A stretch of DNA of 32,000 nt, from assembly GCF_000619845.1 (NCBI RefSeq), contig NZ_JHUX01000003.1:370064-402063 (forward strand), written 5' to 3'. This DNA comes from Alkanindiges illinoisensis DSM 15370. GTDB lineage: Bacteria; Pseudomonadota; Gammaproteobacteria; Pseudomonadales; Moraxellaceae. Made by a program: the position numbers and the translations under genes. Shown here piece by piece: positions 1,276 to 26,828 of the stretch (positions are counted from its first letter, which is position 1; each line of letters opens with the position of its first letter). The notes under the pieces are model-generated. The model made no database searches. It saw nothing but the letters and a program-made list of their open reading frames with translations, and was not told where the DNA came from.

Positions 1276-1291
1276 AGCGAGAACTATGCCA
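1276..1291 (-). promoter_or_regulatory. weak sigma-54-like -24/-12 element upstream of hpxO
   Basis: Minus strand reads TGGCAT-agttc-TCGCT with correct GG-N10-GC spacing, about 47 bp upstream of the hpxO ATG. The -12 box has C instead of T. Confidence 0.3.
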
Positions 1292-1358
1292 AGCTACGGA
1301 AAGGACTGCTATAAAAAATTTTTATTGTTATAAATAAGTTACTTAACTAAAAATTTAG

Positions 1359-1367
1359 ATTATAGCA
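1359..1367 (-). promoter_or_regulatory. alternative extended -10 (TGcTATAAT) for hpxO
   Basis: Minus strand reads TGCTATAAT. No good -35 at 17 bp. Competes with the sigma-54-like element as the hpxO promoter. Confidence 0.25.
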
Positions 1368-1411
1368 AAACATGAAAAACCCGTTTTGCAAAAGCCGATA
1401 AGATTGTTATT

Positions 1412-1426
1412 ACTGGTCTGACCAGT
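1412..1426. promoter_or_regulatory. GntR/FadR-type operator palindrome, copy 1
   Basis: ACTGGTCTGACCAGT is a perfect 7-1-7 inverted repeat, extendable to TACTGGTCTGACCAGTA. The core TGGTnnnACCA matches the FadR-subfamily GntR operator pattern. Lies in the hpxO upstream region. Confidence 0.6.
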
Positions 1427-1576
1427 ATCTGGCCCACCATTAGTTGCAGCAAGCCTTAAAAGTACAGGCGAGACCACCAATGGAATAAATATGGGGCAAC
1501 TCTGCACGAGAATATGGCATAAGCGGCACCTAATGGTGCACTTGTTATTTTATGGCTTTTTGCAAAAAAATTGGAC

Positions 1577-2287
1577 TTAGGACTGATGGCTTAAAAAGTA
1601 AACACCGGCACGCTGGGCTGCGCAAATTACATGTTTTTTCATGGCCTGTTCAGCGGCCAGGCTATCCCTGGCGCATAGTGCGTCAAGAATATGCTGGTGC
1701 TCCAGAATGGTTTGATGGGCCAGACTGGGCTGGATAAAGGGTAGTACCTGACTTTGCTTTAACGCTTCTGTCTGGTTTTTTAAAATCTGGACCACTGAAG
1801 GATTATGGCTTAATTCAAGAATGCGCTGATGAAACTGATGATCATGCAGGGCGGCTTCCTGCCAGTTCTGCTGTTCAATGGCGGTTTTAAGCTGCTCAAA
1901 ATGACTTTTAAACAACTGCTGATCTTTTTCATTAAGATAATGACACGCCAGCATGGCGCAAAAGCTTTCCAGCACATAGCGTAACTGGTAAAAATCTTTT
2001 AATGACCCACTATGGGTCTGGTTCCATTGTTCCACCGGCTGGCTGTCCAGTGCAGTCACATAAACCCCTTTGCCAGCCAGAATCTTAAGTTGGCCAAGCG
2101 CTGCCAGCCGGGTCAGGGCTTCGCGTAATGAAGCGCGGCTAATCCCAAGCTGTAGCGCCAGTTCGCGCTGTGAAGGCAGGGCAGCACCAACCGGATAAAC
2201 TCCCTGCTGAATCCAGTCGTAAATGGTAATGACGGCTTGTTCAGTCACTTGTGAGGGCTGTCTGGTTATAATTGATTGAGGCTTCAT
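1577..2287 (-). CDS. GntR-family (FadR/FCD subfamily) transcriptional regulator
   Basis: N-terminal winged HTH (LPSQRELALQLGISRASLREALTRL) followed by an all-helical His-rich FCD-like domain. Start is ambiguous: ATG at 2287 or in-frame GTG at 2302, neither with a clear SD. Confidence 0.85.
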   Translation of the reverse strand: MKPQSIITRQPSQVTEQAVITIYDWIQQGVYPVGAALPSQRELALQLGISRASLREALTRLAALGQLKILAGKGVYVTALDSQPVEQWNQTHSGSLKDFYQLRYVLESFCAMLACHYLNEKDQQLFKSHFEQLKTAIEQQNWQEAALHDHQFHQRILELSHNPSVVQILKNQTEALKQSQVLPFIQPSLAHQTILEHQHILDALCARDSLAAEQAMKKHVICAAQRAGVYFLSHQS

Positions 2288-2436
2288 ATTGATCGGGTTC
2301 ACTACAGTGGCCTGTTTGCCACATTTAATTAAATACCGTGTATGTTTTACTGGATTTATAAAAAAATAACCAGCAACCGCTTTTAGAAAAATCTGGCCGA
2401 ATGACCACTATTCACGCTGATGATTAATTCATGCTA

Positions 2437-2451
2437 ACTGGTCTGACCAGT
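2437..2451. promoter_or_regulatory. GntR/FadR-type operator palindrome, copy 2
   Basis: Identical ACTGGTCTGACCAGT in the divergent gntR-alc intergenic region, with flanks A/T extending the palindrome to 17 bp. Ends 1 bp before the -24 TGG of the alc promoter candidate. Confidence 0.65.
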
Positions 2452-2467
2452 TGGATTGGTTTTTGCA
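2452..2467 (+). promoter_or_regulatory. sigma-54-like -24/-12 promoter for alc-allA
   Basis: TGGATT-ggttt-TTGCA with GG-N10-GC spacing, 46 bp upstream of the alc ATG. Confidence 0.55.
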
Positions 2468-2512
2468 TGATATTCACAGTCTCCAGACTATCAGGATTTA
2501 GGGTGTTATTTT

Positions 2513-3538
2513 ATGAGCATTAGTTATGCCAAGCCGGCTGATCTACCGGAACATTTCAAACGTTTGGTCAATCTGGCCGATGCACGGATTGGCACCACTA
2601 TCGTGGCGTGCTCCGATGAGTTTTTTGCCAAGGCCGAACGCATGTTACAAACAGCGCCTGCCATGTTTATCGCTGACAAGTTTGATGATCATGGCAAATG
2701 GATGGATGGCTGGGAAACCCGGCGCAAGCGTGAGGCTGGCTATGACTGGTGTATTGTTCGCCTGGGTGTTGCCGGGCAGATTACCGGCTTTGATGTGGAT
2801 ACGTCCTTTTTTACCGGCAACTACCCGGCTTCTGCATCCATAGAAGCCTGTTATGCACCGGATGACCAGCTGGATGAGCAGACAACATGGGTGGAGCTGG
2901 TTGCCAACCATATCCTGTCGCCGGATCATCATCATCTGATTGAAGCCAGCCAGCAGGGGCAGCCATTTACCCATATCCGCCTGAATATCTTTCCGGATGG
3001 CGGCATTGCACGCTTGCGGGTCTATGGCCAGGTGGTCTTGCAGTCACAGGCTGCTACAGACCCGCTTGATCTGGTGGCCCTGAAAAATGGGGGCAGGATA
3101 GTGGCGTTTAGTGATGCGCATTTTGGTCATCCCAACAATTTATTAAATCCGGGCCGTGGCATTAACATGGGTGATGGCTGGGAAACCAAGCGTCGCCGGG
3201 CACCCGGACACGACTGGTGCATTATTGCGCTGGGCCAGCCGGGTCAGGTTGAGCGGATTGAGGTGGATACTGCGCATTTTAAGGGCAACTATCCGGCTTT
3301 TTGCTCTATTCAGGCCGTCTATGTGGAAAATGCCACGGATGCACAGCTCATCCCGCAAAGTATGTTCTGGCCGTTTTTGTTAAATGACCAGCCATTAAGC
3401 ATGGATCACATCCATACCTATATTTCTGAAATTCTGCACGAGCAAAAAATTAGCCATATCCGCCTGAATATGATCCCTGATGGCGGCATCAGCCGTATCC
3501 GGTTATGGGGCAAGATAGCGCTTGAAGATGGCGTTTGA
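2513..3538 (+). CDS. alc: allantoicase
   Basis: 341 aa with the two tandem allantoicase repeats, each carrying the DGWET(R/K)R(K/R)R...DWCI motif (GWETRRKREAGYDWCIVRLG and GWETKRRRAPGHDWCIIALG). Confidence 0.9.
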   Translation: MSISYAKPADLPEHFKRLVNLADARIGTTIVACSDEFFAKAERMLQTAPAMFIADKFDDHGKWMDGWETRRKREAGYDWCIVRLGVAGQITGFDVDTSFFTGNYPASASIEACYAPDDQLDEQTTWVELVANHILSPDHHHLIEASQQGQPFTHIRLNIFPDGGIARLRVYGQVVLQSQAATDPLDLVALKNGGRIVAFSDAHFGHPNNLLNPGRGINMGDGWETKRRRAPGHDWCIIALGQPGQVERIEVDTAHFKGNYPAFCSIQAVYVENATDAQLIPQSMFWPFLLNDQPLSMDHIHTYISEILHEQKISHIRLNMIPDGGISRIRLWGKIALEDGV

Positions 3539-3638
3539 TTAACCACTTTAGTCTAAAACCGGGTGTTAGTTCTAGTCCGATTTTAACTTCGAGGTTTTAA
3601 GTTGAAGGTATTTATTTGGAATTTTTAGGATAACTATA

Positions 3639-4163
3639 ATGACCCTGACTGTCGCGTTACAACCACTGACTGCGGCATGCTTTGCCGCTTTTGGTGACGT
3701 GATTGAATGTGCTGGCCAGCCCTTATCCATTAATCAGGGCCAAACAGAACGTTACCATGCTTTGTCCTTGCCACAGGTTGCTGGTGAGGCCGCAAGCATT
3801 GGCCTGAGTATTTTCAGAAATTTACAGGCCAGTACGCTGCCGTTACAGATCGACATGCTGGAGCGCCATCCACAGGGGAGCCAGTCGTTTATTCCCATGG
3901 ATGGACAGGCCTTTGTCATTGTGGTGGCACTGCCGTTAGACGACCGGCAACCGGATGAAGCGCAGGTTTGTGCTTTTTTAAGTAACGGCCAGCAAGGGAT
4001 AACCTATGCCAGAGGCGTGTGGCACCATCCGCTGATTACGCTGGAAGCACCCAGTAATTTTCTGGTGGTGGACCGTATTGGCACAGGCCATAACTGTGAC
4101 ATTCATCAGTTGAGCCAGCCTTGTCTGATTAGGGTAGAAACTGCAGTGCCAGTGGCTAATTAG
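3639..4163 (+). CDS. allA: ureidoglycolate lyase
   Basis: 174-aa protein matching the AllA family along its length (FGDVIE..., LERHPQGSQSFIPM, GVWHHPLI). AGGA SD 8 nt upstream. Immediately downstream of alc. Confidence 0.88.
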   Translation: MTLTVALQPLTAACFAAFGDVIECAGQPLSINQGQTERYHALSLPQVAGEAASIGLSIFRNLQASTLPLQIDMLERHPQGSQSFIPMDGQAFVIVVALPLDDRQPDEAQVCAFLSNGQQGITYARGVWHHPLITLEAPSNFLVVDRIGTGHNCDIHQLSQPCLIRVETAVPVAN

Positions 4164-4190
4164 TCAACAGGTCACAATTGATAGTGAACA

Positions 4191-4229
4191 AAAAAAGCTG
4201 CTTTTGCATTGATCAAAAGCAGCTTTTTT
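4191..4229. terminator. bidirectional Rho-independent terminator
   Basis: AAAAAAGCTGCTTTTG - cattgat - CAAAAGCAGCTTTTTT is a 16-bp perfect stem flanked by an A-run and a T-run. It lies between the convergent allA and 2OG oxygenase genes. Confidence 0.8.
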
Positions 4230-4243
4230 ATTAACTGGAGTAA

Positions 4244-5260
4244 TTAATATTTGCCCTCAAAGTTGGCACTAATGCGTTGTTGCAAGTAATCCCGGGCGGT
4301 AATGGCCGGATATTTTTTGTTCGGCCCTTCAATGATGACATCTTCATTGGCCTGGCAGAAAAATGCCAGACTATAGCGGGCACCCTGATACTCATGCGCA
4401 GCCGGATTTTTGACCCGGTGAAAATTGGAAGGCAACTGGTCATCACTCCAGCGCGTGAGCATATCGCCAATATTACAGGTAATCACCTCATCGTGAGGCT
4501 GGATACTGGTCCATTCCTGGTCTTCCATATCCTTGCCCGGGCATACCTGCAAGCCGCCCTGTCCATTGCGCTGGAACAGTAAAGTCAGGCAGTCAAAATC
4601 GGTATGGGCACCAGCACGCCACAGGCCCAACTGGTCTTTTAGGGCTGGGTCAATGGCATAGTAATGCAGCATGCGCAGCGTACTTTGGTAGCTTTGCTTG
4701 GAGGGATCATGCGCCTGTGTGAAAAAATCATCACTAAAGCCCAGCTTATAGGCAAAGCAGGACAGGATTTTCATGCCAGTCTGCCAGCAGGCCTGTTCAA
4801 AGTTCAGCATGGTTTCCTGAAAGTCAGGCAATTCCTGCACGCTGGGCCATAAACCATCCATGCGGGGGCGGGTAATTTGATAGGATTCTTTCTGGTCTGG
4901 TGTATTGGTTGATGGCCTGATCTGTGCCTTGCTTTCCCAGCCTGCATTCCGCTTGAGTGGATACTGTGCCTTTACCTCAGCGGGTAGTGCAAAAAACTGT
5001 TCGGTGCTGGCAAAAGCCTGCTGAATCTGGCTTAAGGGAATGCCATGGTTGGCAACCTGAAAAAATCCAATGTCCACCGCAGCATTCCAGAGCTGGTCAG
5101 CAATCTCAAACTTGCGCTGTTCAAAGTCAGACAAGTCAATAATACGGATTTCTCGGGCAAAGGTTTCCTGTCCCATGGCACCCATGCGGGCTTCTTTTTT
5201 GAGTTCATCGAGGGAATAGGGCGTGGACAGGGTAGGATCAATGGTATTGGAGCCGTTCAT
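4244..5260 (-). CDS. 2-oxoglutarate/Fe(II)-dependent oxygenase (isopenicillin-N-synthase-like family), substrate unknown
   Basis: 338 aa. DIOX_N-like N-terminus (GFFQVANHGIP). HxD...H facial triad (GAHTDFD ... SNFHRV). 2OG-binding RxS (ARYSLAFF). AGGA SD 8 nt before the ATG. Confidence 0.8.
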   Translation of the reverse strand: MNGSNTIDPTLSTPYSLDELKKEARMGAMGQETFAREIRIIDLSDFEQRKFEIADQLWNAAVDIGFFQVANHGIPLSQIQQAFASTEQFFALPAEVKAQYPLKRNAGWESKAQIRPSTNTPDQKESYQITRPRMDGLWPSVQELPDFQETMLNFEQACWQTGMKILSCFAYKLGFSDDFFTQAHDPSKQSYQSTLRMLHYYAIDPALKDQLGLWRAGAHTDFDCLTLLFQRNGQGGLQVCPGKDMEDQEWTSIQPHDEVITCNIGDMLTRWSDDQLPSNFHRVKNPAAHEYQGARYSLAFFCQANEDVIIEGPNKKYPAITARDYLQQRISANFEGKY

Positions 5261-5480
5261 GTTAGTGTTCCTGCATTTACTGAAAAATCAAGGTGTGGCC
5301 CAATATATGCATGGTACTGCCATCGGGTCACGTCTCATGAAAAACACTGACCCTGCGATATTCCTGGAATAGGATCTATCAGGTGTCAGCTATTTTCCGA
5401 GCAATGACCCACATACGCATCATTTTAAATTCTGGCAAAATGACTGTATGTTGAACGCTTCTACTCTGGTGTAGTCAGTA

Positions 5481-5496
5481 AGCAATTGCTGTACCA
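5481..5496 (-). promoter_or_regulatory. sigma-54-like -24/-12 promoter for the 2OG oxygenase gene
   Basis: Minus strand reads TGGTAC-agcaa-TTGCT with correct spacing. It implies a leader of about 210 nt before the ATG at 5260. Confidence 0.5.
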
Positions 5497-5686
5497 TTCT
5501 GGCTTAAAATTTTTTTACTGAATTTTATTGTTTTATATTCAATGAATTAAGGTAATACATGTTCCAGGTAAAATAGACAACAGCACAGTCGCTTTTCCTG
5601 TATTTTCCTGTCTTTATTTAGGTCTGCACCATGATTGAGCAATTTGCCGGCTTATCACCATCGTGAACCACGATGGCGCAGATAAT

Positions 5687-5701
5687 ACTGGTCTGACCAG
5701 T
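5687..5701. promoter_or_regulatory. GntR/FadR-type operator palindrome, copy 3
   Basis: Third identical ACTGGTCTGACCAGT (17-bp version TACTGGTCTGACCAGTA). Lies between the divergent 2OG oxygenase and NMT1-type ABC promoters. Confidence 0.6.
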
Positions 5702-5790
5702 AAGCCACTTTTTTGCAGGGCTGCTTCCTGTTTAAATGATTTTTGGTTTTTGATTTATAAATCATTAGCTTAATTACAAGAAATACAATA

Positions 5791-5806
5791 TGGCATAGCC
5801 TTTGCA
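5791..5806 (+). promoter_or_regulatory. sigma-54-like -24/-12 promoter for the NMT1-type ABC transporter operon
   Basis: TGGCAT-agcct-TTGCA is a near-consensus match. It lies 189 bp upstream of ATG 5995, so the leader is about 175 nt. Confidence 0.6.
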
Positions 5807-5882
5807 AGTTTGTATTCTGAGTATAAGCGGTTAGTGCGTATCAACAACGCATGGGACATTGCTCTGCAGCGAAAGCTGCTCC

Positions 5883-5987
5883 TCAATAGAGGGCGGGTTC
5901 TGCCAGCAGTTCCCGAGAGTTGGCCTATACGACAAGTCCACCCTCTATTGAATAGCAAGTATGTATCGACATTATCTATTCTAGAGG
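5883..5987 (+). promoter_or_regulatory. structured 5' leader with SD / anti-SD / anti-anti-SD arrangement (riboswitch-like; class unassigned)
   Basis: TCAATAGAGGG (5883-5893) is the exact reverse complement of CCCTCTATTGA (5941-5951). The stem extends by GG/CC plus G-U to 5897/5937. CCTCTA (5942-5947) can instead pair with the SD TAGAGG (5982-5987). Two small hairpins lie upstream (5834-5852, and 5866-5879 with a GAAA loop). Confidence 0.35.
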
Positions 5988-5994
5988 TATAGCC

Positions 5995-6987
5995 ATGAAA
6001 AAGAATCATTCTATCCATATGCCACGTTTCGCACTGCTCACTGCGGCTGTCTTGTGCAGCACATTTACTCAAGCCAATGATAAACTGGTTTTACAAACCA
6101 CATGGTATGCCCAGGCAGAGCAGGGCGGTTATTATCAGGCTGTTGCGCAAGGCATTTATAAAAAATACGGACTGGACGTGACGGTAAAGGCAGGCGGCCC
6201 GCAGGTCAATAATATGACCTTACTGCTGGCCAAGCGTGCAGACGTTATTATTAATTATGACCTGCAAGTGCTCAAAGGTATTGAGCAAGGTTTTCCCATC
6301 AAGGCAATTGCAGCACCATTCCAGTTTGATCCGCAAGGCATGCTGACGCATGGTGATGTCAAAAACCTGGCCGGCCTTAAAGGCAAAACCATCCTGGTTT
6401 CTGCCAGTGGGCAAGCCAGCTGGTGGCCATGGTTAAAAGCCAAATATCATCTGGAAGAAAGTCAGGCCCGTCCATACACCTTCAACATGCAGCCATTTCT
6501 GGCCGGCAAGAATGTTGCACAACAAGCCTATGCCACCTCAGAAGTCTTACAGGCCAAAAAAGCAGATCCGGGCAGTAATTTCTTCCTGTTTGCCAATGAG
6601 GGCTATCCGTCCTATGGCGGTATCCTGGTTACCCGCAACGATGTTCTGCAAAGCAAGCCGGATGTCCTGCAGCGCTTTGTCAAGGCTTCCATGGAGGGCT
6701 GGAAAAGCTATCTGGCCAACCCGGCACTGGGTAATGCCCTGATTAAAAAAGAAAACCCGAACATGACTGACGACGTGCTGGCGTTTGGGGTGTCGCAAAT
6801 GAAAAAACTGCATTTGATTGATGGTGGCGATGCGGCAACCAAAGGTTATGGCGTGATGACCGATGCACGCTGGAAAGCCACACGGGATTTTATGGTAGAA
6901 ACCAAGTTACTTGATGCCAAAACCAACTGGTCCAGTGCCTACACCACCCAGTTTTTTGCACCTGCCAGCAAAAAGCCGGCAAAGTAA
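5995..6987 (+). CDS. ABC transporter periplasmic substrate-binding protein, NMT1/THI5-like (NitT/TauT family)
   Basis: 330 aa. Signal peptide ending TFTQA/ND. NMT1/THI5-like fold signature by overall resemblance. SD AGAGG 7 nt upstream. Followed by a cognate ATPase and permease. Confidence 0.85.
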   Translation: MKKNHSIHMPRFALLTAAVLCSTFTQANDKLVLQTTWYAQAEQGGYYQAVAQGIYKKYGLDVTVKAGGPQVNNMTLLLAKRADVIINYDLQVLKGIEQGFPIKAIAAPFQFDPQGMLTHGDVKNLAGLKGKTILVSASGQASWWPWLKAKYHLEESQARPYTFNMQPFLAGKNVAQQAYATSEVLQAKKADPGSNFFLFANEGYPSYGGILVTRNDVLQSKPDVLQRFVKASMEGWKSYLANPALGNALIKKENPNMTDDVLAFGVSQMKKLHLIDGGDAATKGYGVMTDARWKATRDFMVETKLLDAKTNWSSAYTTQFFAPASKKPAK

Positions 6988-7041
6988 TTTCATTTTTAGG
7001 TGAGTAAAGAGTCGCAATACGCAACAATGGGGGAACCTAAA

Positions 7042-7863
7042 ATGAATACTGCATTATCACTTGATTCAATGGTCGCAACGCCCAGGCCACAGGATATTCC
7101 CATGCTGATGGCAAACGGCGTTGAGAAAATCTATCCTAACGGCACACATGCGCTGGAGCGTCTGAACTTACACATTGCCCGTGGTGAAATCGTATCCCTG
7201 CTCGGCCCCTCAGGCTGTGGCAAAAGTACCTTGCTAAAGATGTTTGCTGATCTGGAGCAGCCCTCAGCAGGCCAGATTCGCTGGAATGGCAAAGGCGATA
7301 TCCAGTCGCAGTGCAACATGGCCATGGTATTTCAGGAAGCGACGTTAATGCCGTGGGCCACGATTGAAGACAATGTTCGCCTGCCACTGGATTTACAGGG
7401 TATTTCCAAAAATACCAGTACGGCTAAAGTCCATGCAGCCCTGGAAGCAGTAGGCCTGGGCAAGTTTACCAGGGCGTTTCCGCGTGAGCTGTCCGGTGGC
7501 ATGCAAATGCGTGCTTCGCTGGCGCGCGCGCTGGTGACCGAACCGGACTTGCTGCTGATGGATGAACCCTTTGGCGCGCTGGATGAGTTTACCCGGCAAA
7601 AACTGGACAGTGACATCCGGTCATTATGGGCGGAACAGGATCTAACCGTGGTGTTTGTCACCCACAGTATTTATGAGGCGGTGTATTTATCATCGCGCGT
7701 GATTGTCATGGGCGCACGGCCGGGCCGCGTGGTGGCTGATGTGGCGATTGAAGGCGCTGCCATTCGTGATGACCAATTCCGCACCTCGGAATCATTTATC
7801 AAGCAGTGTGCGCAATTGTCCTCAATTCTTGAGCAAGCCAGTGGAGGGACGCATCATGGCTAA
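7042..7863 (+). CDS. ABC transporter ATP-binding protein (NitT/TauT family)
   Basis: Walker A GPSGCGKST, signature LSGGMQMR, Walker B LLLMDEPFGALD. Start placed at ATG 7042 (GGGGGAA SD 6 nt upstream) rather than the ORF-track GTG at 7000. Confidence 0.85.
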   Translation: MNTALSLDSMVATPRPQDIPMLMANGVEKIYPNGTHALERLNLHIARGEIVSLLGPSGCGKSTLLKMFADLEQPSAGQIRWNGKGDIQSQCNMAMVFQEATLMPWATIEDNVRLPLDLQGISKNTSTAKVHAALEAVGLGKFTRAFPRELSGGMQMRASLARALVTEPDLLLMDEPFGALDEFTRQKLDSDIRSLWAEQDLTVVFVTHSIYEAVYLSSRVIVMGARPGRVVADVAIEGAAIRDDQFRTSESFIKQCAQLSSILEQASGGTHHG

Positions 7864-8650: not shown

Positions 8651-8662
8651 GGCATTTTGAGA

Positions 8663-10102: not shown

Positions 10103-10116
10103 TTGATCCGGTTTAC

Positions 10117-10182
10117 AGTATCCCTATAGTGAGGAGCCTGACTTGTATTGTGCATCAGTTTCAATGCACATTTAGGGATACT
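10117..10182 (+). repeat. nested inverted repeats in the amidohydrolase-puuE spacer
   Basis: AGTATCCCTA (10117-10126) pairs with TAGGGATACT (10173-10182). The inner pair is TGTGCAT (10149-10155) with ATGCACA (10164-10170). An adjacent hairpin is CGGATCA-cca-TGATCCG (10184-10200). No T-run follows. Confidence 0.45.
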
Positions 10183-10292
10183 ACGGATCACCATGATCCG
10201 CAACGTCCTGTAAGTAATGCAAGGCCTGTTTGGAACCGATTAAGCTTTAGACCGGATTGTTAAAGCATTTGTAAAAACTCAAAGGTAGAGCC

Positions 10293-11374: not shown

Positions 11375-11390
11375 TGGCATAAACCCTGCT
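11375..11390 (+). promoter_or_regulatory. sigma-54-like -24/-12 element upstream of guaD
   Basis: TGGCAT-aaacc-CTGCT with correct GG-N10-GC spacing, 118 bp upstream of ATG 11508. Confidence 0.4.
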
Positions 11391-12995: not shown

Positions 12996-13011
12996 TGGTA
13001 CTGGCTTTGCT
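12996..13011 (+). promoter_or_regulatory. sigma-54-like -24/-12 promoter for uraD-hiuH
   Basis: TGGTAC-tggct-TTGCT with correct spacing, 68-107 bp upstream of the candidate uraD starts. Confidence 0.5.
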
Positions 13012-13944: not shown

Positions 13945-14276
13945 AATAGCCAGTTATATGTGGTTTGACTTTGCATGGTTTAGCCTGAGTATTCCAGCTT
14001 GCATTAACCGGCTTTGAACGTCTTGAGGGGTGTACATTTTTGGGCAATAGCGGCATAGGTTATATCTATTTTGTGATACTCCTGTTTGCACTGAAATTGC
14101 CGGAAAATAAAACCACTTTAGTTAAAATTTAATAAAAATAATATAAATCAATTAGATATGAATTAATAGAAGTCCGTATGTTACTTAGGCCTGAAGCAGG
14201 AGAGCAATATACGGGCTTGGCATATGCTTTGCTTGAACCTGATTATCTGTTTTTGCATATAAGGTCAGAACACAAA

Positions 14277-15200
14277 ATGCGTCCATCCAGTAAGTGGGAA
14301 TCTTTGGATGTTCCTTTATTACAGGTGCTACATGCCTTGCTCATTGAAAAAAGTGTTTCCAATGCTGCCCGCCGTTTAAACCAGTCACAACCTGCGGTGA
14401 GTACCTCACTGCGTAAATTGCGTGAAATTACCGGTGATCAGTTGCTGGTACGCAGCCGTAATGGCATGACACCTACAGAGCGCGGGCTGGCGTTGCTGGA
14501 ACCTGTGACCCATGTGTTAAACCAGATTGAAAAAATTGGCGTGCAACAGGTGCATTTTGATCCTGCACAGTCCCGTCAGGTGTTTAATCTGGCAACGCCT
14601 GACTATTTAAGTGCCATTGATCTGGGCGAGGTGATTCGCCGTATTCGGGTAGAAGCCCCACATACCACCATCATGATTCATTCGCTGGGGCATGATTTTG
14701 ATTATGCCCAGGCGCTGGAAAGCGGCATGCTGGATGCGGTGATTGCCAACTGGCCACAGCCACCAGAGCATTTGCGTCTGGCGCCCTTATTTGATGATGA
14801 GGTGGTCTGCCTGATGCGCAAAAGTCATCCACTGGCCAATAAGCCACTGACACTGGATGATTATTTGTCTGCCGAGCATCTGGCACCTACCCCTTACACA
14901 GTGGGCCAGCGTGGCGTGATTGACCTGCATCTGGCTAAGGAACGCCTAAAGCGCAATATTGTGGCATACGTGCCCTATTTTAGTATGGTGCCGTATATGC
15001 TGCTGCAAATGAATGCCGTGTTTTCGCTACCGCGTTCTTTTGCCAAGCATTATTGCTCACTGATGCCATTAACCATTTCTGAAATTCCAATTGATTTTCC
15101 CAAAATTCCCTTTTATGTGCTGTGGCATGAGCGCTCGCACCATTCCGAGGAATATCGCTGGTTTCGCGAGTTACTGGTTTCGGTGTTTCGCCATCATTAG
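14277..15200 (+). CDS. LysR-family transcriptional regulator
   Basis: N-terminal HTH (SVSNAARRLNQSQPAVSTSLRKLRE) plus a LysR substrate-binding domain. ATG 14277 gives the canonical N-terminus. The ORF-track start 14178 adds an implausible extension. Confidence 0.85.
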   Translation: MRPSSKWESLDVPLLQVLHALLIEKSVSNAARRLNQSQPAVSTSLRKLREITGDQLLVRSRNGMTPTERGLALLEPVTHVLNQIEKIGVQQVHFDPAQSRQVFNLATPDYLSAIDLGEVIRRIRVEAPHTTIMIHSLGHDFDYAQALESGMLDAVIANWPQPPEHLRLAPLFDDEVVCLMRKSHPLANKPLTLDDYLSAEHLAPTPYTVGQRGVIDLHLAKERLKRNIVAYVPYFSMVPYMLLQMNAVFSLPRSFAKHYCSLMPLTISEIPIDFPKIPFYVLWHERSHHSEEYRWFRELLVSVFRHH

Positions 15201-15442: not shown

Positions 15443-15458
15443 TGGTAAGAAACTTGCC
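15443..15458 (+). promoter_or_regulatory. sigma-54-like -24/-12 element upstream of the porin gene
   Basis: TGGTAA-gaaac-TTGCC with correct spacing, 119 bp upstream of ATG 15577. Confidence 0.4.
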
Positions 15459-15576
15459 ATTTATTTAATGGTCAGCAGCAGTGCAATAAAGCCGTACTGT
15501 GTCAGGTTTTAGATCCTGCTGAACAGGTGAATGATAGACCTTAAGTCTTGGTTTTTTACAGTTTTGAAGGGCGAAT

Positions 15577-19419: not shown

Positions 19420-19438
19420 CATACGTCAGGGTTATCAA

Positions 19439-19454
19439 AGCAATTAATATTCCA
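19439..19454 (-). promoter_or_regulatory. sigma-54-like -24/-12 promoter for the BMP substrate-binding gene
   Basis: Minus strand reads TGGAAT-attaa-TTGCT with correct spacing, 144 bp upstream of the ATG. Confidence 0.5.
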
Positions 19455-19593: not shown

Positions 19594-20115
19594 ATGAGCC
19601 AGCACAGTAGTGATCAGGTGTTATCAGACCAGATGCTATCAGCGCAGGATGCAGGATTTTTAAGACAATCCTTTGCGCTGGCTGCACAGACACGCCAGCA
19701 GGGTATGCACCCTTTTGCAGCAATTGTGGTGAACGAGCAGGGAGAGGTAGTGGCACAGGCGGGCAACAACTCTCTGCCACCAGCGGGTGATCCAACCCGC
19801 CATGCTGAAATTGTAGCCGCAGGGATGGCTGCCAAAATACTGACGCTGGCACAAATGAAACAATGCACGCTGTATACCAACGCAGAACCGTGCGCGATGT
19901 GTGCCGGAGCTATTTACTGGTCCGGCATTGGCAAAGTGGTTTACGGTATTTCTGAAACCCAGTTGCTGCAAATTACTGGTGATCATCCGGAAAATCCGAC
20001 CATGTCGCTGCCGTGCCGGCAGGTGTTTGCCAGCGGGCAGCGCAGCATTCAGGTGATCGGCCCCTGCCTGGAGCAGGAAGCCGCCGCAGTGCATGACGGC
20101 TTCTGGCAACACTGA
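19594..20115 (+). CDS. CDA-fold zinc deaminase (nucleoside/guanine deaminase-like, TadA/GuaD-Bsu type)
   Basis: Zinc motifs HAE (PTRHAEIVA) and PCxxC (EPCAMCAGA). ATG 19594 preferred over the ORF-track GTG 19576. Confidence 0.8.
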   Translation: MSQHSSDQVLSDQMLSAQDAGFLRQSFALAAQTRQQGMHPFAAIVVNEQGEVVAQAGNNSLPPAGDPTRHAEIVAAGMAAKILTLAQMKQCTLYTNAEPCAMCAGAIYWSGIGKVVYGISETQLLQITGDHPENPTMSLPCRQVFASGQRSIQVIGPCLEQEAAAVHDGFWQH

Positions 20116-20194
20116 ACGCTTAAACCTGACATCATGGGCAACGGCATATAAACCTAATACTAAAGTGGACATAGCGTTAAGGGACGATGCGCTA

Positions 20195-20210
20195 TGGAAT
20201 GGATGTTGCA
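20195..20210 (+). promoter_or_regulatory. sigma-54-like -24/-12 promoter for xdhABC
   Basis: TGGAAT-ggatg-TTGCA with correct spacing, 62 bp upstream of the xdhA ATG. Confidence 0.55.
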
Positions 20211-20271
20211 TTTATTGGTTATGAGGATGATTACTGTCATCCATGTGCTGATTTAATGGCTGGAAAGAAAA

Positions 20272-21930: not shown

Positions 21931-24440
21931 ATCAAATTATTCCAGAGGGTATCAACCTACAGCGTGATACCTTAGGCGTGGAACATTTAACTGATAATCC
22001 TGCAAAACATTCCTTTATCGGCAAGTCCATTCCGCATGAAAGCGCGCATCTGCATGTCAGTGGCAAGGCAACCTATATTGATGACAGCGTAGAGCTGACG
22101 GGCACCTTGCATGCTGCTGTGGGTTTATCCACCTGTGCGCATGGCCGGATCAAGTCACTTGATTTATCCAGGGTATGGGCGGCGGCTGGTGTGCGTGATG
22201 TATTGCTGGCACAGGATATTCCACATAATAACTGTGGGCCAATGATTGCCGATGATCCGATTATTGCCGATGAGCTGGTCAGCTTTTATGGACAGGTCAT
22301 TTTTGTGGTGGCAGCGGATACCTATCAGCAGGCGCGTGCTGCGGTACGGCTGGCTGTGGTGGAATATGAGGTACTGGAACCCCTATTGAGCATTCAACAG
22401 GCGATCCAGGCAGAATCATGGGTGTTGCCTCCGGTTGAGCTGTCCCACAATAAGGCACAGGACAAACTGGCACAGGCACCCTATCGCTTGCAGGGCAGTG
22501 CCAGCGTGGGCGGACAGGAGCATTTTTATCTGGAAGGTCAGATCTCCTATGCCTGGCCCAGAGAAGACCACACGCTGCATGTATTGTGTTCTACCCAGCA
22601 TCCAACCGAAATGCAGTACCTGATTGGTCACGCGCTGGGTTACCGGGCGCATCAGGTCAGCATCGAAACCCGCCGGATGGGTGGTGGCTTTGGTGGCAAG
22701 GAGTCCCAGTCAGCACAGTGGGCCTGTATTGCAGCGTTGCTGGCGGTAAAAACCGGCAAGCCGGTCAAGTTGCGGCTGGATCGTGATGACGACATGGTGG
22801 CAACCGGCAAGCGTCACGGGTTTGATTATGAATGGGACGTTGGCTTTGATGCTGACGGGCGTATTGTGGGATTGTATATCCAGTTGGCCTCCAACTGCGG
22901 GTTTTCGGCAGATTTATCCGGGCCGGTGAATGACCGTGCCATTTGCCATGTGGATAATGGCTATTATCTGGATGCGGTGACTATTCGCAGTTTACGTTGT
23001 AAAACCAATACAGTATCCAACACGGCATTTCGTGGTTTTGGCGGGCCACAGGGCATGTTCCCGATTGAATATATTGTTGATGATATTGCCTATGCGCTGG
23101 ACAAGGATCCGCTGGACGTGCGCCTGCTGAATTTTTATGATGAGGCAAATTCAGAAGCAGCCACAAAAACAGGCACCGATACAGTTACAGGGATTCGTAA
23201 CACCACCCATTACGGCACTACCATTACCGATAATGTATTGCCTACGCTTGTTAATGAGTTGGCAGAAAGCTGCAATTACCACGCAAGGCGTGCCGACATT
23301 GCCCGCTTTAATGCGGATAGCCCGATCATCAAAAAAGGTCTGGCCTTAACGCCGGTCAAGTTTGGAATTTCCTTTAATGCTACCATGTACAATCAGGCGG
23401 GTGCGCTGATTCATGTGTATAGTGATGGCACAGTGCTGGTCAATCATGGTGGCACCGAAATGGGGCAGGGACTGTACAGCAAAATCCGCCAGATCGTCGC
23501 GCATGAGTTTAGCATTCCACTGGCTGATGTGCGGTTTTCTGCCACCGATACCAGCCGTGTCCCCAACACATCAGCTACCGCAGCATCCAGCGGTACAGAC
23601 TTAAATGGCAAGGCGGCTCAAGCAGCCTGTATTACCATTCGTACCCGCCTGGCAATTTTCGCCAGTGAAATGGCAAATACCGACATCAGCACGGTTTATT
23701 TTAAAGATGGATATGTCTATGCTGGCCAACAACACTGGACTTTTGCAGAACTGGTGCTATCGGCGTATTACTCAAGAATCCAGTTGTGGGATAGCGGTTT
23801 TTATAAAACCCCGGATATTCACTGGAATCCTGCCATTCGCTATGGCAGGCCGTTTTATTATTTTGCCTATGGCGCGGCGGCCACCGAGGTTGCCATTGAT
23901 ACCTTAACGGGTGAAACCCGGATATTACGTACTGATATTTTGCATGATGTCGGGCAATCGATTAATCCGGCCATTGATATTGGTCAAATTGAAGGCGGCT
24001 TTATTCAGGGTATGGGCTGGCTGACCAGCGAGGAATTATACTGGGTAACCAGTGGGCCGAAGGCCGGGCATTTGTTTACCCACGCGCCATCCACCTACAA
24101 GATTCCTACCGCTGCCGATATTCCTGCGATTTTTAACGTAAAACTGTTTAATAACCGCAATGTGGAAGACACCATTTATCGTTCCAAGGCCGTGGGTGAA
24201 CCGCCATTTATGCTGGCGTTATCGGTGTTTTCTGCCTTGCGTGATGCCGTCGCCGCCACCGTGCAAACCGATGTGCTGACGGCGCAGGGACTTAAGCAAA
24301 AACCATCATTACAGGCGCCAGCAACCCCGGAAAATATCCTGCGGGCAATTTATACGGCACAACAGCAGTCTTTAACTACAGACTTTTCAGCCACTGCCAT
24401 AGATGCAGCTAATCATGATGCTGCACCTGTTAGGACGTAA
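21927..24440 (+). CDS. xdhB: xanthine dehydrogenase large molybdopterin-binding subunit
   Basis: 837 aa. RRMGGGFGGKES, GGTEMGQGLYSK and KAVGEPPF motifs of the xanthine oxidase family. GGGAG SD. Confidence 0.92.
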   Translation: MNQIIPEGINLQRDTLGVEHLTDNPAKHSFIGKSIPHESAHLHVSGKATYIDDSVELTGTLHAAVGLSTCAHGRIKSLDLSRVWAAAGVRDVLLAQDIPHNNCGPMIADDPIIADELVSFYGQVIFVVAADTYQQARAAVRLAVVEYEVLEPLLSIQQAIQAESWVLPPVELSHNKAQDKLAQAPYRLQGSASVGGQEHFYLEGQISYAWPREDHTLHVLCSTQHPTEMQYLIGHALGYRAHQVSIETRRMGGGFGGKESQSAQWACIAALLAVKTGKPVKLRLDRDDDMVATGKRHGFDYEWDVGFDADGRIVGLYIQLASNCGFSADLSGPVNDRAICHVDNGYYLDAVTIRSLRCKTNTVSNTAFRGFGGPQGMFPIEYIVDDIAYALDKDPLDVRLLNFYDEANSEAATKTGTDTVTGIRNTTHYGTTITDNVLPTLVNELAESCNYHARRADIARFNADSPIIKKGLALTPVKFGISFNATMYNQAGALIHVYSDGTVLVNHGGTEMGQGLYSKIRQIVAHEFSIPLADVRFSATDTSRVPNTSATAASSGTDLNGKAAQAACITIRTRLAIFASEMANTDISTVYFKDGYVYAGQQHWTFAELVLSAYYSRIQLWDSGFYKTPDIHWNPAIRYGRPFYYFAYGAAATEVAIDTLTGETRILRTDILHDVGQSINPAIDIGQIEGGFIQGMGWLTSEELYWVTSGPKAGHLFTHAPSTYKIPTAADIPAIFNVKLFNNRNVEDTIYRSKAVGEPPFMLALSVFSALRDAVAATVQTDVLTAQGLKQKPSLQAPATPENILRAIYTAQQQSLTTDFSATAIDAANHDAAPVRT

Positions 24441-24443
24441 GCC

Positions 24444-25514
24444 ATGAAACTCTGGTTGTCCAGCTTGCCGTGCTGGTTGCAGCAGGGCAGTGATTGTGTG
24501 CTAGTCACAGTGGTACAGGTGCAGGGTTCTACGCCACGGGAAGCAGGTGCCAGTATGCTATTGCGCCTGGCTAATAATACTGGTGTGCAATCAGCCCAGC
24601 TAGCGGGTATGCAACAGGTCGACACCATCGGCGGCGGTCATCTGGAGTGGCAGGCCTGTCATATTGCGCAGCAAATGTTACAGGAATCCGGTGCGGTGCC
24701 CGTGCGGCTGGAGCGTTTTAATTTGGGGGCACGGCTAGGGCAGTGCTGTGGCGGACTGGCGCTATTGGTATTTGAAAAAATTTTGGCGAGTCAGTTGGAT
24801 AGCTGGCAGCAGCGTAGGGAGTGCCTGACCACGCCGCGGTCTGCTGGCAACACGCCATACAGCCTACAGCGCCAGTTACAGGCAGGCCATGCAACATCAC
24901 AATGGACATTCAGCGATCAAGATTCAGTCCAGACAGAAACAGCAGTTTTTTGCGTTCCCTCATCGGTAGATGCTCAGGACTGGTATTTTGAACAGACCTT
25001 GCTCAACCACCAGTTTCATGTGGTGGTGTTTGGTGCAGGTCATGTCGGGCAGGCTGTGGTACAGGCATTGTTACCGCTACAAGCCAGTATTTGCTGGGTG
25101 GATGTACGCGATCAGGTATTTCCAGCGTGGTCGCATCCTGATTTAAGCTGCATTTCAACCGATACGCCTGAATATGAAATTGAGCATGCACCCGCCAACA
25201 GTTATTTTTTGATCATGACCCATAATCATGCGCTGGATCTGGCTTTGTGCCACGCCTTATTCAAGCGGCATGACTATGCCTATTTTGGCCTGATTGGTTC
25301 TCACAGCAAGCGTGCGATATTTGAACGCCGTTTACGGCAACGTGGGGTCTTACAGACACAACTTGAACAAATGATCTGCCCGATCGGCGTGCAGGGCATT
25401 CACAGTAAGGAACCCGCAGCTATTGCCATTGCTGTCGTGGCACAGTTGTTACAGATGAAGTCATTATCCATGCAGACCGTTAAGGCTGAGGTTGCCGTAC
25501 CGGGACTGGCTTGA
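24444..25514 (+). CDS. xdhC: xanthine dehydrogenase accessory/maturation factor XdhC
   Basis: XdhC/CoxI N-terminal domain (VLVTVVQVQGSTPREAGASML) and a Rossmann-like domain (VVVFGAGHVGQAVV). Starts 3 nt after the xdhB stop. Confidence 0.85.
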   Translation: MKLWLSSLPCWLQQGSDCVLVTVVQVQGSTPREAGASMLLRLANNTGVQSAQLAGMQQVDTIGGGHLEWQACHIAQQMLQESGAVPVRLERFNLGARLGQCCGGLALLVFEKILASQLDSWQQRRECLTTPRSAGNTPYSLQRQLQAGHATSQWTFSDQDSVQTETAVFCVPSSVDAQDWYFEQTLLNHQFHVVVFGAGHVGQAVVQALLPLQASICWVDVRDQVFPAWSHPDLSCISTDTPEYEIEHAPANSYFLIMTHNHALDLALCHALFKRHDYAYFGLIGSHSKRAIFERRLRQRGVLQTQLEQMICPIGVQGIHSKEPAAIAIAVVAQLLQMKSLSMQTVKAEVAVPGLA

Positions 25515-25543
25515 TGCTGGTTTTGCCTCATCTTCAGTCAATT

Positions 25544-25573
25544 AACCTGCCTGAGAAGCTTGGGCAGGTTTGA
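25544..25573 (+). terminator. weak terminator-like hairpin after xdhC
   Basis: AACCTGCC-tgagaagcttg-GGCAGGTT followed by only TTT. The 3' arm is duplicated by the adjacent tandem repeat, so two alternative hairpins are possible. Confidence 0.3.
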
Positions 25574-25588
25574 AGCTTAGGCAGGTTT
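25555..25588. repeat. tandem 17-bp direct repeat (2 copies, 1 mismatch)
   Basis: GAAGCTTGGGCAGGTTT followed directly by GAAGCTTAGGCAGGTTT. Lies between the convergent xdhC and adenine deaminase genes. Confidence 0.7.
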
Positions 25589-25610
25589 GGATGATATCAA
25601 ATCAAAAAAA

Positions 25611-26660
25611 TTAATCCGCCAGTTTCCACGCTTGCCAGATCTGATCAATTTCTGCCAGTTGTCTGGCTTTTTCGGCATCACTTAACCAAGACGCGATAAA
25701 ACTGTTTTTGGCCAGTTGTACGATATCCTGATCGGACAGATTCAATGCAGTAGTGCAAGCTTTAAAGTTATCATTCACATAACCGCCAAAATAGGCTGGA
25801 TCATCCGAGTTAATCGTTACCAGCAAGCCCATATCCAGCATCTGTTTTAAGGGATGCTCCTGCATGGTAGTGAAAACCTTTAGGCGGATATTTGACAATG
25901 GGCAGACTGTCAAAGGTATCTGCTCAGCCACCAGTTGCCTGACCAGCTCAGCATTTTCAAGACTTCGTACGCCATGATCAATACGCTTTACATTCAACAA
26001 ATGCAGCGCATCCATTACATATGCAGCCGGGCCTTCTTCCCCGGCATGTGCCACACAGGGCAGGTTTAGCTCCTGACAGCGTTTAAATAACCGTTCAAAC
26101 TTGGCAGGCGGATGACCCTTTTCACTGGAATCCAGCCCGAAGCCATCAATGCCCTGCAAAAAAGGCATCGCCTGTTCCAGAACATCAAAGCCTTCCTGCT
26201 CGGTTAAGTGCCGTAAAAAACTGAATATCAGTCTGGATGATAGGCCCCACTGCGCCTGTGCCTCATCCAGTGCGCGGCGGATACCCTGATAAACAATGGC
26301 AAACGGCACGCCACGCAAGGTATGGGTTTGCGGATCAAAAAAGATTTCCGTGTGTACGATATTGTCGTCATGGGCTTTTTGCAGATAAGCCCACGTCAGG
26401 TCATAAAAATCCTGCTCGGTCAGCAACACGGCTGCACCGGCATAATACAGGTCTAAAAACGATTGCAGATTATGAAAATCATAGGCTGCACGTAGCTCGT
26501 CAATACTGGCATAAGGCAGGGTCACTTGATTACGCTGGGCCAGTGCAAACATCAGTTCGGGTTCAAGCGTGCCTTCAATATGCAGGTGCAGTTCGGTTTT
26601 GGGCAATTGTCCAATCAGTTGATACAGCCTGTGCTGCGTGTTAGTGCATTGCGTTGTCAT
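25611..26660 (-). CDS. adenosine-deaminase-family enzyme, probably adenine deaminase
   Basis: ELHLHIEG (HxH), VAHAGE, TINSDDPAYF motifs. 349 aa. Resembles the proteobacterial ADA-like subgroup reported to act on adenine. Confidence 0.85.
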   Translation of the reverse strand: MTTQCTNTQHRLYQLIGQLPKTELHLHIEGTLEPELMFALAQRNQVTLPYASIDELRAAYDFHNLQSFLDLYYAGAAVLLTEQDFYDLTWAYLQKAHDDNIVHTEIFFDPQTHTLRGVPFAIVYQGIRRALDEAQAQWGLSSRLIFSFLRHLTEQEGFDVLEQAMPFLQGIDGFGLDSSEKGHPPAKFERLFKRCQELNLPCVAHAGEEGPAAYVMDALHLLNVKRIDHGVRSLENAELVRQLVAEQIPLTVCPLSNIRLKVFTTMQEHPLKQMLDMGLLVTINSDDPAYFGGYVNDNFKACTTALNLSDQDIVQLAKNSFIASWLSDAEKARQLAEIDQIWQAWKLAD

Positions 26661-26724
26661 GATGCGCCTATCCTCAGTATTTGGTCTAAGTATTTAACCT
26701 GATCAAAGTGAATGCCTAACTGAT

Positions 26725-26740
26725 AGCCAGCATTGGGCCA
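26725..26740 (-). promoter_or_regulatory. weak sigma-54-like element upstream of the adenine deaminase gene
   Basis: Minus strand reads TGGCCC-aatgc-TGGCT with correct GG-N10-GC spacing but an imperfect -12 box. It lies 65 bp upstream of the ATG. Confidence 0.3.
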
Positions 26741-26812
26741 GTGCGATGTGGTTTTAGCCATTATGTGTGTTTCGCCATAACCACTATATCCATTGTAGCC
26801 AGTCTGGGGCAG

Positions 26813-26828
26813 TGGCATAGAGGTTGCT
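26813..26828 (+). promoter_or_regulatory. sigma-54-like -24/-12 promoter for the ABC ATPase-permease operon
   Basis: TGGCAT-agagg-TTGCT is a near-consensus match, 116 bp upstream of ATG 26944. Confidence 0.6.

Follow-up and report, generated by a model that had tools for sequence, protein, structure and literature searches.

Control of nitrogen-scavenging catabolism by sigma-54 (RpoN) and NtrC is a general principle that is already established, including for purine pathways. In Burkholderia cenocepacia H111, xdhAB, a urate oxidase cluster, and allantoicase were found by RNA-seq to be sigma-54- and NtrC-dependent (PMC5491218). The HpxAB-HpxO-HpxWXYZ operons of Klebsiella oxytoca rise under nitrogen starvation, with NtrC/sigma-54 control suggested from inspection of the promoters (PMC8381380), and an ntrC mutant of Pseudomonas stutzeri is impaired on uric acid (PMC8443478). 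Acinetobacter is known to encode RpoN, with an RpoN box (PMC5382811). Literature searches that paired sigma-54 with xanthine dehydrogenase or allantoin, and Acinetobacter RpoN or NtrC with purines, returned no direct report, and no account of sigma-54/NtrC control of purine genes was found for the Moraxellaceae; a 2026 paper on NtrC of A. baumannii makes no mention of purines (PMC12829801), and the main text of a 2025 cross-phylum survey of sigma-54 regulons covers neither purines nor Acinetobacter. Here we describe sigma-54 (−24/−12) promoter-like elements in a purine-utilization cluster of Alkanindiges illinoisensis DSM 15370 (Moraxellaceae), contained in a stretch of 32,000 nucleotides (nt) with a G+C content of 48.8% (contig NZ_JHUX01000003.1, positions 370,064 to 402,063; hereafter the window, whose own numbering is used for coordinates).

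The cluster can be divided into 15 transcription units, and eleven of these are likely to be transcribed from sigma-54 promoters, with NtrC as the most likely activator and with local control layered on top. The eleven units are: hpxO; alc-allA; the 2-oxoglutarate (2OG)/Fe(II) oxygenase gene; the NMT1-type ATP-binding cassette (ABC) transporter operon; guaD; uraD-hiuH; lysR; a gene for a putative outer-membrane channel (porin); the BMP-type binding-protein gene together with the 8-oxoguanine deaminase gene; xdhABC; and an ABC ATPase gene with two permease genes. The remaining four are gntR, puuE, a CDA-type deaminase gene, and an adenosine/adenine deaminase gene. As in the NtrC/sigma-54 regulons for nitrogen scavenging (e.g., glnAp2 and rut of Escherichia coli and the regulon of B. 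cenocepacia H111), GG-N10-GC promoters precede ammonium-releasing genes, and NtrC-type dyads are found about 110 to 180 nt upstream of at least two promoters. The window is unlike these regulons in that (i) about 11 sigma-54 promoters lie within 27 kb and together serve almost the entire pathway, with its transport genes and the outer-membrane channel; and (ii) canonical NtrC sites were detected at only one intergenic region. The original prediction, made from the letters of the window, had termed such an architecture unusual. This description holds for the degree, given the number of promoters in so short a span, but not for the kind, as precedents exist in B. cenocepacia and K. oxytoca. Our impression is that the array would be, to our knowledge, one of the densest of its type.

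Predicted sigma-54 elements upstream of the purine genes

The core TGG-N8-TTGC was detected at 20 positions when both strands of the whole window were scanned. Nine of the matches were in intergenic DNA that faces a downstream gene (5,758 nt in total), compared with none in the intergenic DNA of the wrong orientation (3,866 nt). These nine included all eight of the full core sites that had been predicted originally, plus a site at 14218 to 14232 upstream of lysR, and the 12 elements of that prediction were all located on the sequence where it had placed them. When the upstream regions were shuffled with preservation of dinucleotides (n = 2,000), the mean number of core matches was 0.70 and the maximum was 4, such that none of the shuffles reached nine (Poisson P of about 6 × 10−8). 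Control spacings of N6, N7, N9, and N10 gave 0, 1, 0, and 0 matches in the upstream regions, respectively; the GG-N10-GC arrangement was exact in all of the predicted sites as well as at 14218, and only this spacing was enriched. An A at position −22 was present in 8 of the 9 core sites versus none of 10 matches in coding DNA. A weight matrix of 16 columns, built from the published consensus YTGGCACGrNNNTTGCW and independent of the sites under study, was used to rank the approximately 64,000 positions of the window. The top seven (5791, 26813, 14218, 20195, 11375, 5496, and 12996) were all correctly oriented upstream sites that scored 14 to 17.4 bits and matched the extended consensus TGGCAC-N5-TTGCW, and the sites at 1291, 19454, 2452, and 15443 were inside the top 19. 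The extended consensus was weaker at the alc, porin, and bmp sites and was lacking at those of puuE and the adenine deaminase gene. Divergent intergenic regions were found to carry two separate outward-facing sites, and matches to sigma-70-like promoters were rarer than in shuffles (20 versus 26.5 and 13 versus 21.0).

Conservation was examined in 80 loci retrieved by a scan of representative genomes with PuuE, mostly from Acinetobacter but also from Aquirhabdus and other Moraxellaceae-like contigs, and in six more loci (L087 to L092) retrieved with XdhA homologues for the 3′ half of the cluster. A match of at least 12 bits was found within 250 nt upstream of 257 of the 347 orthologous first genes, compared with 3 of the 190 internal operon genes (allA, abcA/P, amh1, hiuH, amh3, xdhB/C, and the permease genes). 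Column conservation peaked at TGG and TGC, with TGG and (T)TGC at least 90% conserved and with spacers and flanks that varied; at the T in TGG and at the TT in TTGC, conservation was asymmetric. The sites of the 3′ half were confirmed in L087 to L092. Support for the sigma-54 reading of the original prediction thus comes from the enrichment in spacing and orientation and from the conservation of GG and GC at first rather than internal genes, to which the position of two riboswitch aptamers is added below. Beyond the purine genes, 48 of 607 upstream regions in the flanking DNA of about 80 loci scored at least 13 bits, and nearly all of these had site sequences upstream of a cluster-linked LysR gene or ureE. 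Lower-scoring flanking matches preceded other nitrogen-scavenging genes, which encode an NCS1 permease, an amino-acid binding protein, gamma-glutamyltransferase (GGT), and porins. More distant xdh clusters, which were obtained by a metagenome scan with XdhA (49 to 50% XdhA identity) and served as an outgroup only, had no sigma-54 sites, and the feature is thus lineage-restricted for xdh. Two Rfam elements unrelated to the promoters were also observed in the related loci: a 5′ ureB small RNA antisense to the urease genes that adjoin the xdh cluster of L088 (18004 to 18287, minus strand), and an ALIL pseudoknot, typical of an insertion sequence element, in L007 (13684 to 13800, minus strand).

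Among the individual sites, that of hpxO (1276 to 1291, minus strand; TGGCATAGTTCTCGCT, 13.9 bits) is located 47 nt from the ATG. It had been called weaker in the original prediction but belongs instead to the best supported, since a match of at least 12 bits is kept 40 to 58 nt from the start codon in 53 of 53 orthologues (consensus TGGCAcg.TTtT.GC; family pattern TGGCACG-N4-T(C/A/G)GC(T/A)). The alc-allA site (2452 to 2467, plus strand; TGGATTGGTTTTTGCA, 12.3 bits) is abutted by a GntR-type operator, as described below. In the next divergent region, the 2OG oxygenase site (5481 to 5496, minus strand; TGGTACAGCAATTGCT, 15.1 bits) lies opposite the best site of the window, that of the NMT1-type operon (5791 to 5806, plus strand; TGGCATAGCCTTTGCA, 17.4 bits), which follows the family pattern TGGCA(C/T)-N5-TTGCT and reaches at least 12 bits in 15 of 15 Acinetobacter orthologues. 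The guaD site (11375 to 11390, plus strand; TGGCATAAACCCTGCT, 15.1 bits) has relatives in L087 (TGGCATGGACAATGCT) and 80 nt upstream of the gene in Pectobacterium (TGGCATGTTCTTTGCA). For uraD-hiuH (12996 to 13011, plus strand; TGGTACTGGCTTTGCT, 14.1 bits; family pattern TGGCA(C/T)TG-N3-TTGC(A/T)), at least 12 bits were reached upstream of 51 of 57 uraD orthologues, compared with 1 of 58 for the internal gene hiuH.

The third best site of the window (14218 to 14233, plus strand; TGGCATATGCTTTGCT, 16.1 bits) is upstream of lysR. This site was absent from the original prediction; it falls inside a spurious N-terminal extension of the lysR open reading frame (ORF), 44 nt before the ATG at 14277, and is kept at 44 to 45 nt from the start codon in L087, L088, and L091. 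Another cluster-linked LysR gene of Acinetobacter, distinct from that of the window, also has a sigma-54 site. The site of the outer-membrane channel gene (15443 to 15458, plus strand; TGGTAAGAAACTTGCC, 11.3 bits) is kept as TGGTA(A/G)GAA-N2-TTGCC, 95 to 137 nt upstream, in L087, L088, L091, and L092. Upstream of the genes for the BMP-type binding protein and the downstream 8-oxoguanine deaminase (19439 to 19454, minus strand; TGGAATATTAATTGCT, 13.0 bits), the pattern TGGAAT-N5-TTGCT is kept in L087 to L092 and in A. lwoffii-group loci, with scores of at least 10 bits in 25 of 25. The xdhABC site (20195 to 20210, plus strand; TGGAATGGATGTTGCA, 15.6 bits) has the family pattern TGGAA(T/C)-N5-TTGC(A/T); relatives carry TGGAATAGAAGTTGCA, TGGAATAAGACTTGCT, and TGGAACAGAACTTGCA, and A. 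baylyi carries TGGCACTAAATTTGCA. The second best site is that of the ABC ATPase-permease operon (26813 to 26828, plus strand; TGGCATAGAGGTTGCT, 16.9 bits), the start codon of which is probably the ATG at 26944. It is kept in L087, L091, and L092, with the family pattern TGG(C/T)ATAG-N3-TTGC(T/A).

The claim that such elements precede almost every transcription unit of the cluster stood for about 11 of the 15 units but not for the remaining four. The puuE and adenine deaminase sites had been labeled as weaker, and their scores proved to be within noise. The degenerate puuE site (10231 to 10246, plus strand; TGGAACCGATTAAGCT, about 6.6 bits) is 47 nt from the start codon, and many puuE genes of Acinetobacter have good sites at 45 to 53 nt; a sigma-70-like match (10103 to 10130) is also located ahead of the gene in the window. 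The adenosine/adenine deaminase site (26725 to 26740, minus strand; TGGCCCAATGCTGGCT, 10.0 bits, rank of about 33) is unsupported, as none of four orthologues reached 12 bits and a similar sequence was found only in L087 and, loosely, in L091. For gntR and the CDA-type deaminase gene, no good site was detected in the window and none was conserved in orthologues. An inverted repeat, TGTGCAT-N8-ATGCACA (about 10173 to 10194, plus strand), is present some 40 to 60 nt upstream of the weak puuE site and could represent a regulator site or NtrC-like half-sites.

Other features of the locus were noted in the course of this analysis. Several long ORFs have spurious N-terminal extensions, with likely real starts at 14277 (lysR), 19295 (BMP-type protein), and 26944 (ABC ATPase). 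The CDA/TadA-fold deaminase gene (19594 to 20115, plus strand) lies between the BMP gene and xdhA and is kept in relatives, with a sigma-54 site of its own in none of six orthologues. The outer-membrane channel protein matched no Pfam or NCBIfam family. The nearest PuuE was from a metagenome-assembled genome of Aquirhabdus (83%), and those of Acinetobacter species came next, at about 75%. A Fic-domain gene (30931 to 31665, minus strand), with sigma-70-like matches upstream and without a sigma-54 site, forms the 3′ border of the purine cluster. Another sigma-54 site (TGGCATTTGTTTTGCT, 15 bits; positions 2178 to 2193 of locus L001) was noted some 1.8 kb before the first position of the window and is followed 18 nt later by AACTGGTCTGACCTGT, a one-mismatch copy of the GntR-type operator described below; both are upstream of a xanthine/uracil permease gene, which suggests that the regulon extends past the window.

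Xanthine riboswitches at the predicted transcription starts

Two aptamers of the xanthine riboswitch class (NMT1 RNA, RF03054) were identified in the window by Rfam: one in the 5′ leader of the NMT1-type operon (5814 to 5869, plus strand; 52 bits, E-value 5.9 × 10−9) and one in the 5′ leader of the 2OG oxygenase gene (5394 to 5471, minus strand; 47.8 bits, E-value 8.2 × 10−8), both scored against a gathering score of 36 bits. A relaxed Rfam search of the remaining long leaders of the window revealed no riboswitches besides these two. Relative to the C of the −12 element, the aptamers start at 9 nt (NMT1) and 11 nt (2OG), which corresponds to the predicted transcription start, and the P1 stem begins a few nt into the predicted transcript. 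The same geometry was found elsewhere. In seven Acinetobacter species (loci L003, L006, L007, L009, L020, L023, and L028), the best upstream sigma-54 match was offset by 8 to 13 nt for 14 of 14 aptamers. Homologues of the 2OG oxygenase then gave access to loci from Herbaspirillum, Klebsiella, Pseudomonas chengduensis, Comamonas, and Pigmentiphaga (L093 to L097), where all eight aptamers had this arrangement, with sites such as TGGCACGGCGTTTGCT and TGGCACGAAGCCTGCT. In total, the −12 C was 8 to 13 nt before the aptamer for 24 of 24 riboswitches in at least eight lineages. The best match of a 120- to 150-nt window would fall in a given 6-nt range in only about 4 to 6% of cases at random, so the agreement is not due to chance. 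Of all the sequence-level arguments, this offset is the strongest that the elements are promoters that would actually be used; for two sites of the window, it also provides indirect support, through the position of the aptamer, for transcription starting about 12 nt downstream of the −12 GC.

The aptamers of the window precede gene types that were described for the class by Yu and Breaker (2020; PMC7373994), where the associated genes encode a dioxygenase similar to isopenicillin N synthase and, together with a PRK12393 amidohydrolase, an NMT1-like binding protein. Here, the 2OG oxygenase is a DIOX_N/2OG-FeII_Oxy protein and the binding protein of the operon is an NMT1 protein according to Pfam, and a PRK12393 amidohydrolase is encoded within the same NMT1-type operon. 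The difference from the class as described is that all 24 aptamers examined here start at a predicted sigma-54 +1. In the two riboswitch papers that were searched (PMC7373994 and PMC5737381), sigma-54 is unmentioned, and one of the two occurrences of the word promoter in the discovery paper concerns T7 RNA polymerase. No mention of a promoter-riboswitch module was found in the searchable literature; this module is the part of our findings that appears to be new. It seems fairly probable that members of the class are generally joined to sigma-54 promoters so that the aptamer begins at +1, that the pair forms a composite switch conserved across Beta- and Gammaproteobacteria, and that in this lineage of the Moraxellaceae the same sigma-54 logic has been extended to the whole pathway, with about 11 promoters. 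Such a switch would allow transcription only under nitrogen limitation by way of an enhancer-binding protein, probably NtrC, and would turn translation off when xanthine or urate accumulates.

Candidate activator and local regulators

Signatures of bacterial enhancer-binding proteins (bEBPs; GAFTGA, ESELFG, and GESGTGKE) were encoded neither in the window nor in about 80 related loci. This result agrees with the earlier statement that no AAA+ protein of this type is encoded in the window and, because of it, the need for an external activator holds. Two sites that each have two mismatches to the enteric NtrC consensus, TGCACCA-N3-TGGTGCA, were located 39 nt apart between the divergent 2OG and NMT1 promoters: site 1 at 5625 to 5641 (TGCACCATGATTGAGCA) and site 2 at 5664 to 5680 (TGAACCACGATGGCGCA). 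Counted upstream from the TGG of the NMT1 promoter, site 1 begins at 150 nt and site 2 at 111 nt (spanning 111 to 127). Only 0.3% of random 230-nt segments had one NtrC site this good. At the position aligned with site 1, Acinetobacter loci keep GCACC-N5-AGTGCA or TGGTGCA, and NtrC-like sites were also found in Pigmentiphaga (two mismatches) and at the NMT1 operon of Klebsiella (one mismatch). For comparison, glnA of A. baylyi (19740 to 19925 of L090) has a textbook sigma-54 promoter, TGGTACGAGATTTGCT, with NtrC-like sites of a quality similar to those of the window about 100 and 157 nt upstream (TGCACCAATATGATGCT and a TGGTGCA half-site).

A sequence that resembles a site for integration host factor (IHF; 5760 to 5772, plus strand; AATCATTAGCTTA) follows the activator sites and precedes the NMT1 promoter. 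It is one of five matches to the pattern WATCAW-N4-TTR in 64 kb (both strands); a role for IHF at this position is suggested by inference only. An inverted repeat, CCATCGTG-N5-CACGATGG (about 5657 to 5677), overlaps NtrC-like site 2 and may either belong to the activator site or be bound by a different protein. A de novo search for a motif shared by the upstream regions, by perfect 5-mer dyads, 6-mer enrichment, k-mer occupancy across gene families, and GCAC-Nx-GTGC spacing, revealed no clear common dyad and yielded enrichment of GTGCA/ATGCAC half-sites only. One candidate was set aside: the palindrome GCACA-N3-TGTGC upstream of A. lwoffii-group hpxO, considered as a separate operator, is the divergent alc sigma-54 site read on the other strand. 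Taken as a whole, the cluster has its best activator candidate in NtrC, which we regard as somewhat more likely than not; for the 2OG and NMT1 promoters, our confidence in NtrC is higher than for the whole cluster.

Two local regulators are encoded in the cluster. The gntR product (1577 to 2302, minus strand) has the Pfam domains GntR and FCD and NCBIfam matches of the FadR/LldR type, and is the presumed binder of three operators. These are exact copies of a 15-bp perfect palindrome, ACTGGTCTGACCAGT, with the core TGGTCTGACCA, at 1412 to 1426 (upstream of the hpxO promoter), 2437 to 2451 (abutting the TGG of the alc promoter, at about −41 to −27), and 5687 to 5701 (between NtrC-like site 2 and the NMT1 promoter). 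The pattern CTGGT-NN-GACCAG was restricted to the nine loci with a gntR orthologue. At alc, the last base of the operator is the one just ahead of the TGG, both in the window and in all gntR-type loci of Acinetobacter, and all of these loci keep the arrangement of operator plus TGG(ATT/ACT/TAT)GG-N3-TTGC. The variation of the bases at −23 to −21 (ATT, ACT, or TAT) argues for selection on TGG...TTGC itself, and a GntR repressor bound at this operator would occlude the −24 element. The arrangement resembles the FadR/FCD-type GntR repressors, with TGGT-N3-ACCA-like operators, in that three copies of a palindrome lie by a GntR/FCD gene and occur only in loci that encode the regulator. It differs in that the operator is set against a sigma-54 −24 element (alc) or between activator sites and promoter (NMT1), not over a sigma-70 −35/−10. 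A sequence facing gntR (2516 to 2531, minus strand; TGGCATAACTAATGCT) scored 14 bits, the eighth best of the window, and overlaps the alc start codon; a similar sequence is found at the same codons in Acinetobacter, so coding constraint is inseparable from promoter function there.

The LysR-family regulator (14277 to 15200, plus strand) has the Pfam domains HTH_1 and LysR_substrate, with NCBIfam matches to BsrA/LeuO-like models below cutoff. The nac gene of Klebsiella and E. coli, which encodes a LysR-family regulator, is transcribed from an NtrC-dependent sigma-54 promoter. Similarly, lysR of the window lies 44 nt behind a strong and conserved sigma-54 site; unlike nac, its product is not NAC, with 43 bits against the NAC model cutoff of 309 and best matches that are BsrA/LeuO-like.

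From the motifs, their enrichment and conservation, and the geometry of the riboswitches, we infer that transcription depends on RpoN, which protein activates it, and how the regulatory layers act, as follows. RpoN-RNA polymerase would bind GG(−24)/GC(−12) as a closed complex, to be remodeled only by an AAA+ enhancer-binding protein encoded elsewhere, and transcription would start about 12 nt downstream. The most likely activator would be phosphorylated NtrC under nitrogen limitation, bound, for example, at the pair of sites that separates the 2OG and NMT1 promoters and possibly assisted by IHF bending. Three layers may then be added: (i) the GntR/FCD repressor, at operators abutting or flanking three promoters; (ii) the LysR regulator, whose own gene would be under sigma-54 control; and (iii) the two xanthine riboswitches, predicted to extend from +1 of the 2OG and NMT1 transcripts and belonging to a class reported as an OFF switch.

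Alternative explanations and biological meaning

Several observations weigh against this account. The frequencies of the weight matrix are our approximation of the published consensus, and several sites depart from TGGCAC at −23 to −21 (TGGAAT, TGGATT, and TGGTAA). The choice of best matches inflates apparent conservation; an artifact of this kind is nevertheless unlikely, as the internal-gene control (3 of 190) argues otherwise. At the porin gene, 15443 to 15459 forms a 7-bp hairpin with a T-rich tail and was flagged by a terminator scan. Since the sequence also forms this hairpin, our confidence that it is a sigma-54 promoter is moderate; the hairpin is lost in L092, where GG and GC are retained. 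Lastly, canonical NtrC sites (no more than three mismatches) are absent upstream of most promoters, both in the window and in Acinetobacter, and are significant only at 5625 and 5664; the other promoters carry only the half-sites GTGCA/TGCAC, enriched about two-fold. This last point also favors the possibility, which we consider appreciable though secondary, that the sigma-54 promoters respond to a different external enhancer-binding protein, dedicated to purines or to another signal, or that NtrC acts at the 2OG and NMT1 promoters only. In line with it, several intergenic regions are too short for a classical upstream site, as seen in the uraD alignment, and ygeV, a sigma-54 activator gene of E. 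coli, adjoins the xdh/ygf purine genes. However, dedicated activators are usually encoded adjacent to their targets, and no bEBP gene was found within 10 kb of the cluster in about 80 loci. The presence of such sites at urease genes, with lower-scoring ones at genes for GGT and for the transport of amino acids, has the look of a general nitrogen regulon, and the NtrC-type sites in the NMT1/2OG region, Klebsiella, Pigmentiphaga, and at A. baylyi glnA also point to NtrC.

Other explanations question the promoters themselves. RpoN binding could be weak or absent in vivo, with most units read from unrecognized sigma-70 promoters under GntR and LysR and with sigma-54 acting only at the strongest sites. 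The low scores at alc (12.3), porin (11.3), and bmp (13.0), the sigma-70-like matches near puuE, lysR, porin, and gntR, and the presence of the two local regulators are consistent with this explanation, yet we judge it unlikely: the low-scoring sites keep their position and GG/GC across genera, sigma-70-like matches are fewer than in shuffles, and the GntR operator is positioned to occlude a −24 element specifically. It is more improbable still that a conventional transcription factor uses the motif as its operator (e.g., a quasi-palindromic TGGCA-N6-TGCCA). The sigma-54 consensus is itself quasi-palindromic, the A. lwoffii-group alc site (TGGCACACGCTGTGCT) holds the perfect palindrome GCACA-N3-TGTGC, and the porin site is palindromic as well. 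Against an operator, every site faces its downstream gene and divergent regions have two outward sites, the conserved T before GG and TT before GC make the motif asymmetric, and the porin palindrome is gone in L092 while its GG and GC stay; moreover, the fixed offset of 8 to 13 nt to the 5′ ends of the riboswitches is predicted by a promoter and not by an operator. Chance matches in AT-rich intergenic DNA deserve almost no credence and are already refuted by the shuffles and the comparison of orthologues. Even though enrichment of the core over the whole window is modest (20 versus 11.9) and TGG-N9-TGC is not enriched (48 versus 41.7), none of the 2,000 intergenic shuffles reached the observed count, neighboring spacings gave 0 to 1 matches, and the sites are conserved in orthologues.

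Transcription of the eleven units from sigma-54 promoters, most likely activated by NtrC, is thus the explanation that we retain, in which the purine pathway would probably be switched on by nitrogen starvation and fine-tuned by purine levels. For the xanthine riboswitch class, the module of promoter and riboswitch would provide a predicted native start site and a physiological context, and the combination of a tightly off promoter with an OFF riboswitch is a compact natural design that may be useful in synthetic biology. If this explanation is true, the use of purines as a nitrogen source in the Moraxellaceae, including Acinetobacter, would be hard-wired to RpoN and an activator that reports nitrogen status; rpoN or ntrC mutants would be expected to fail to grow on purines, xanthine, urate, and allantoin, and the local GntR and LysR regulators and the riboswitches would account for added substrate specificity.

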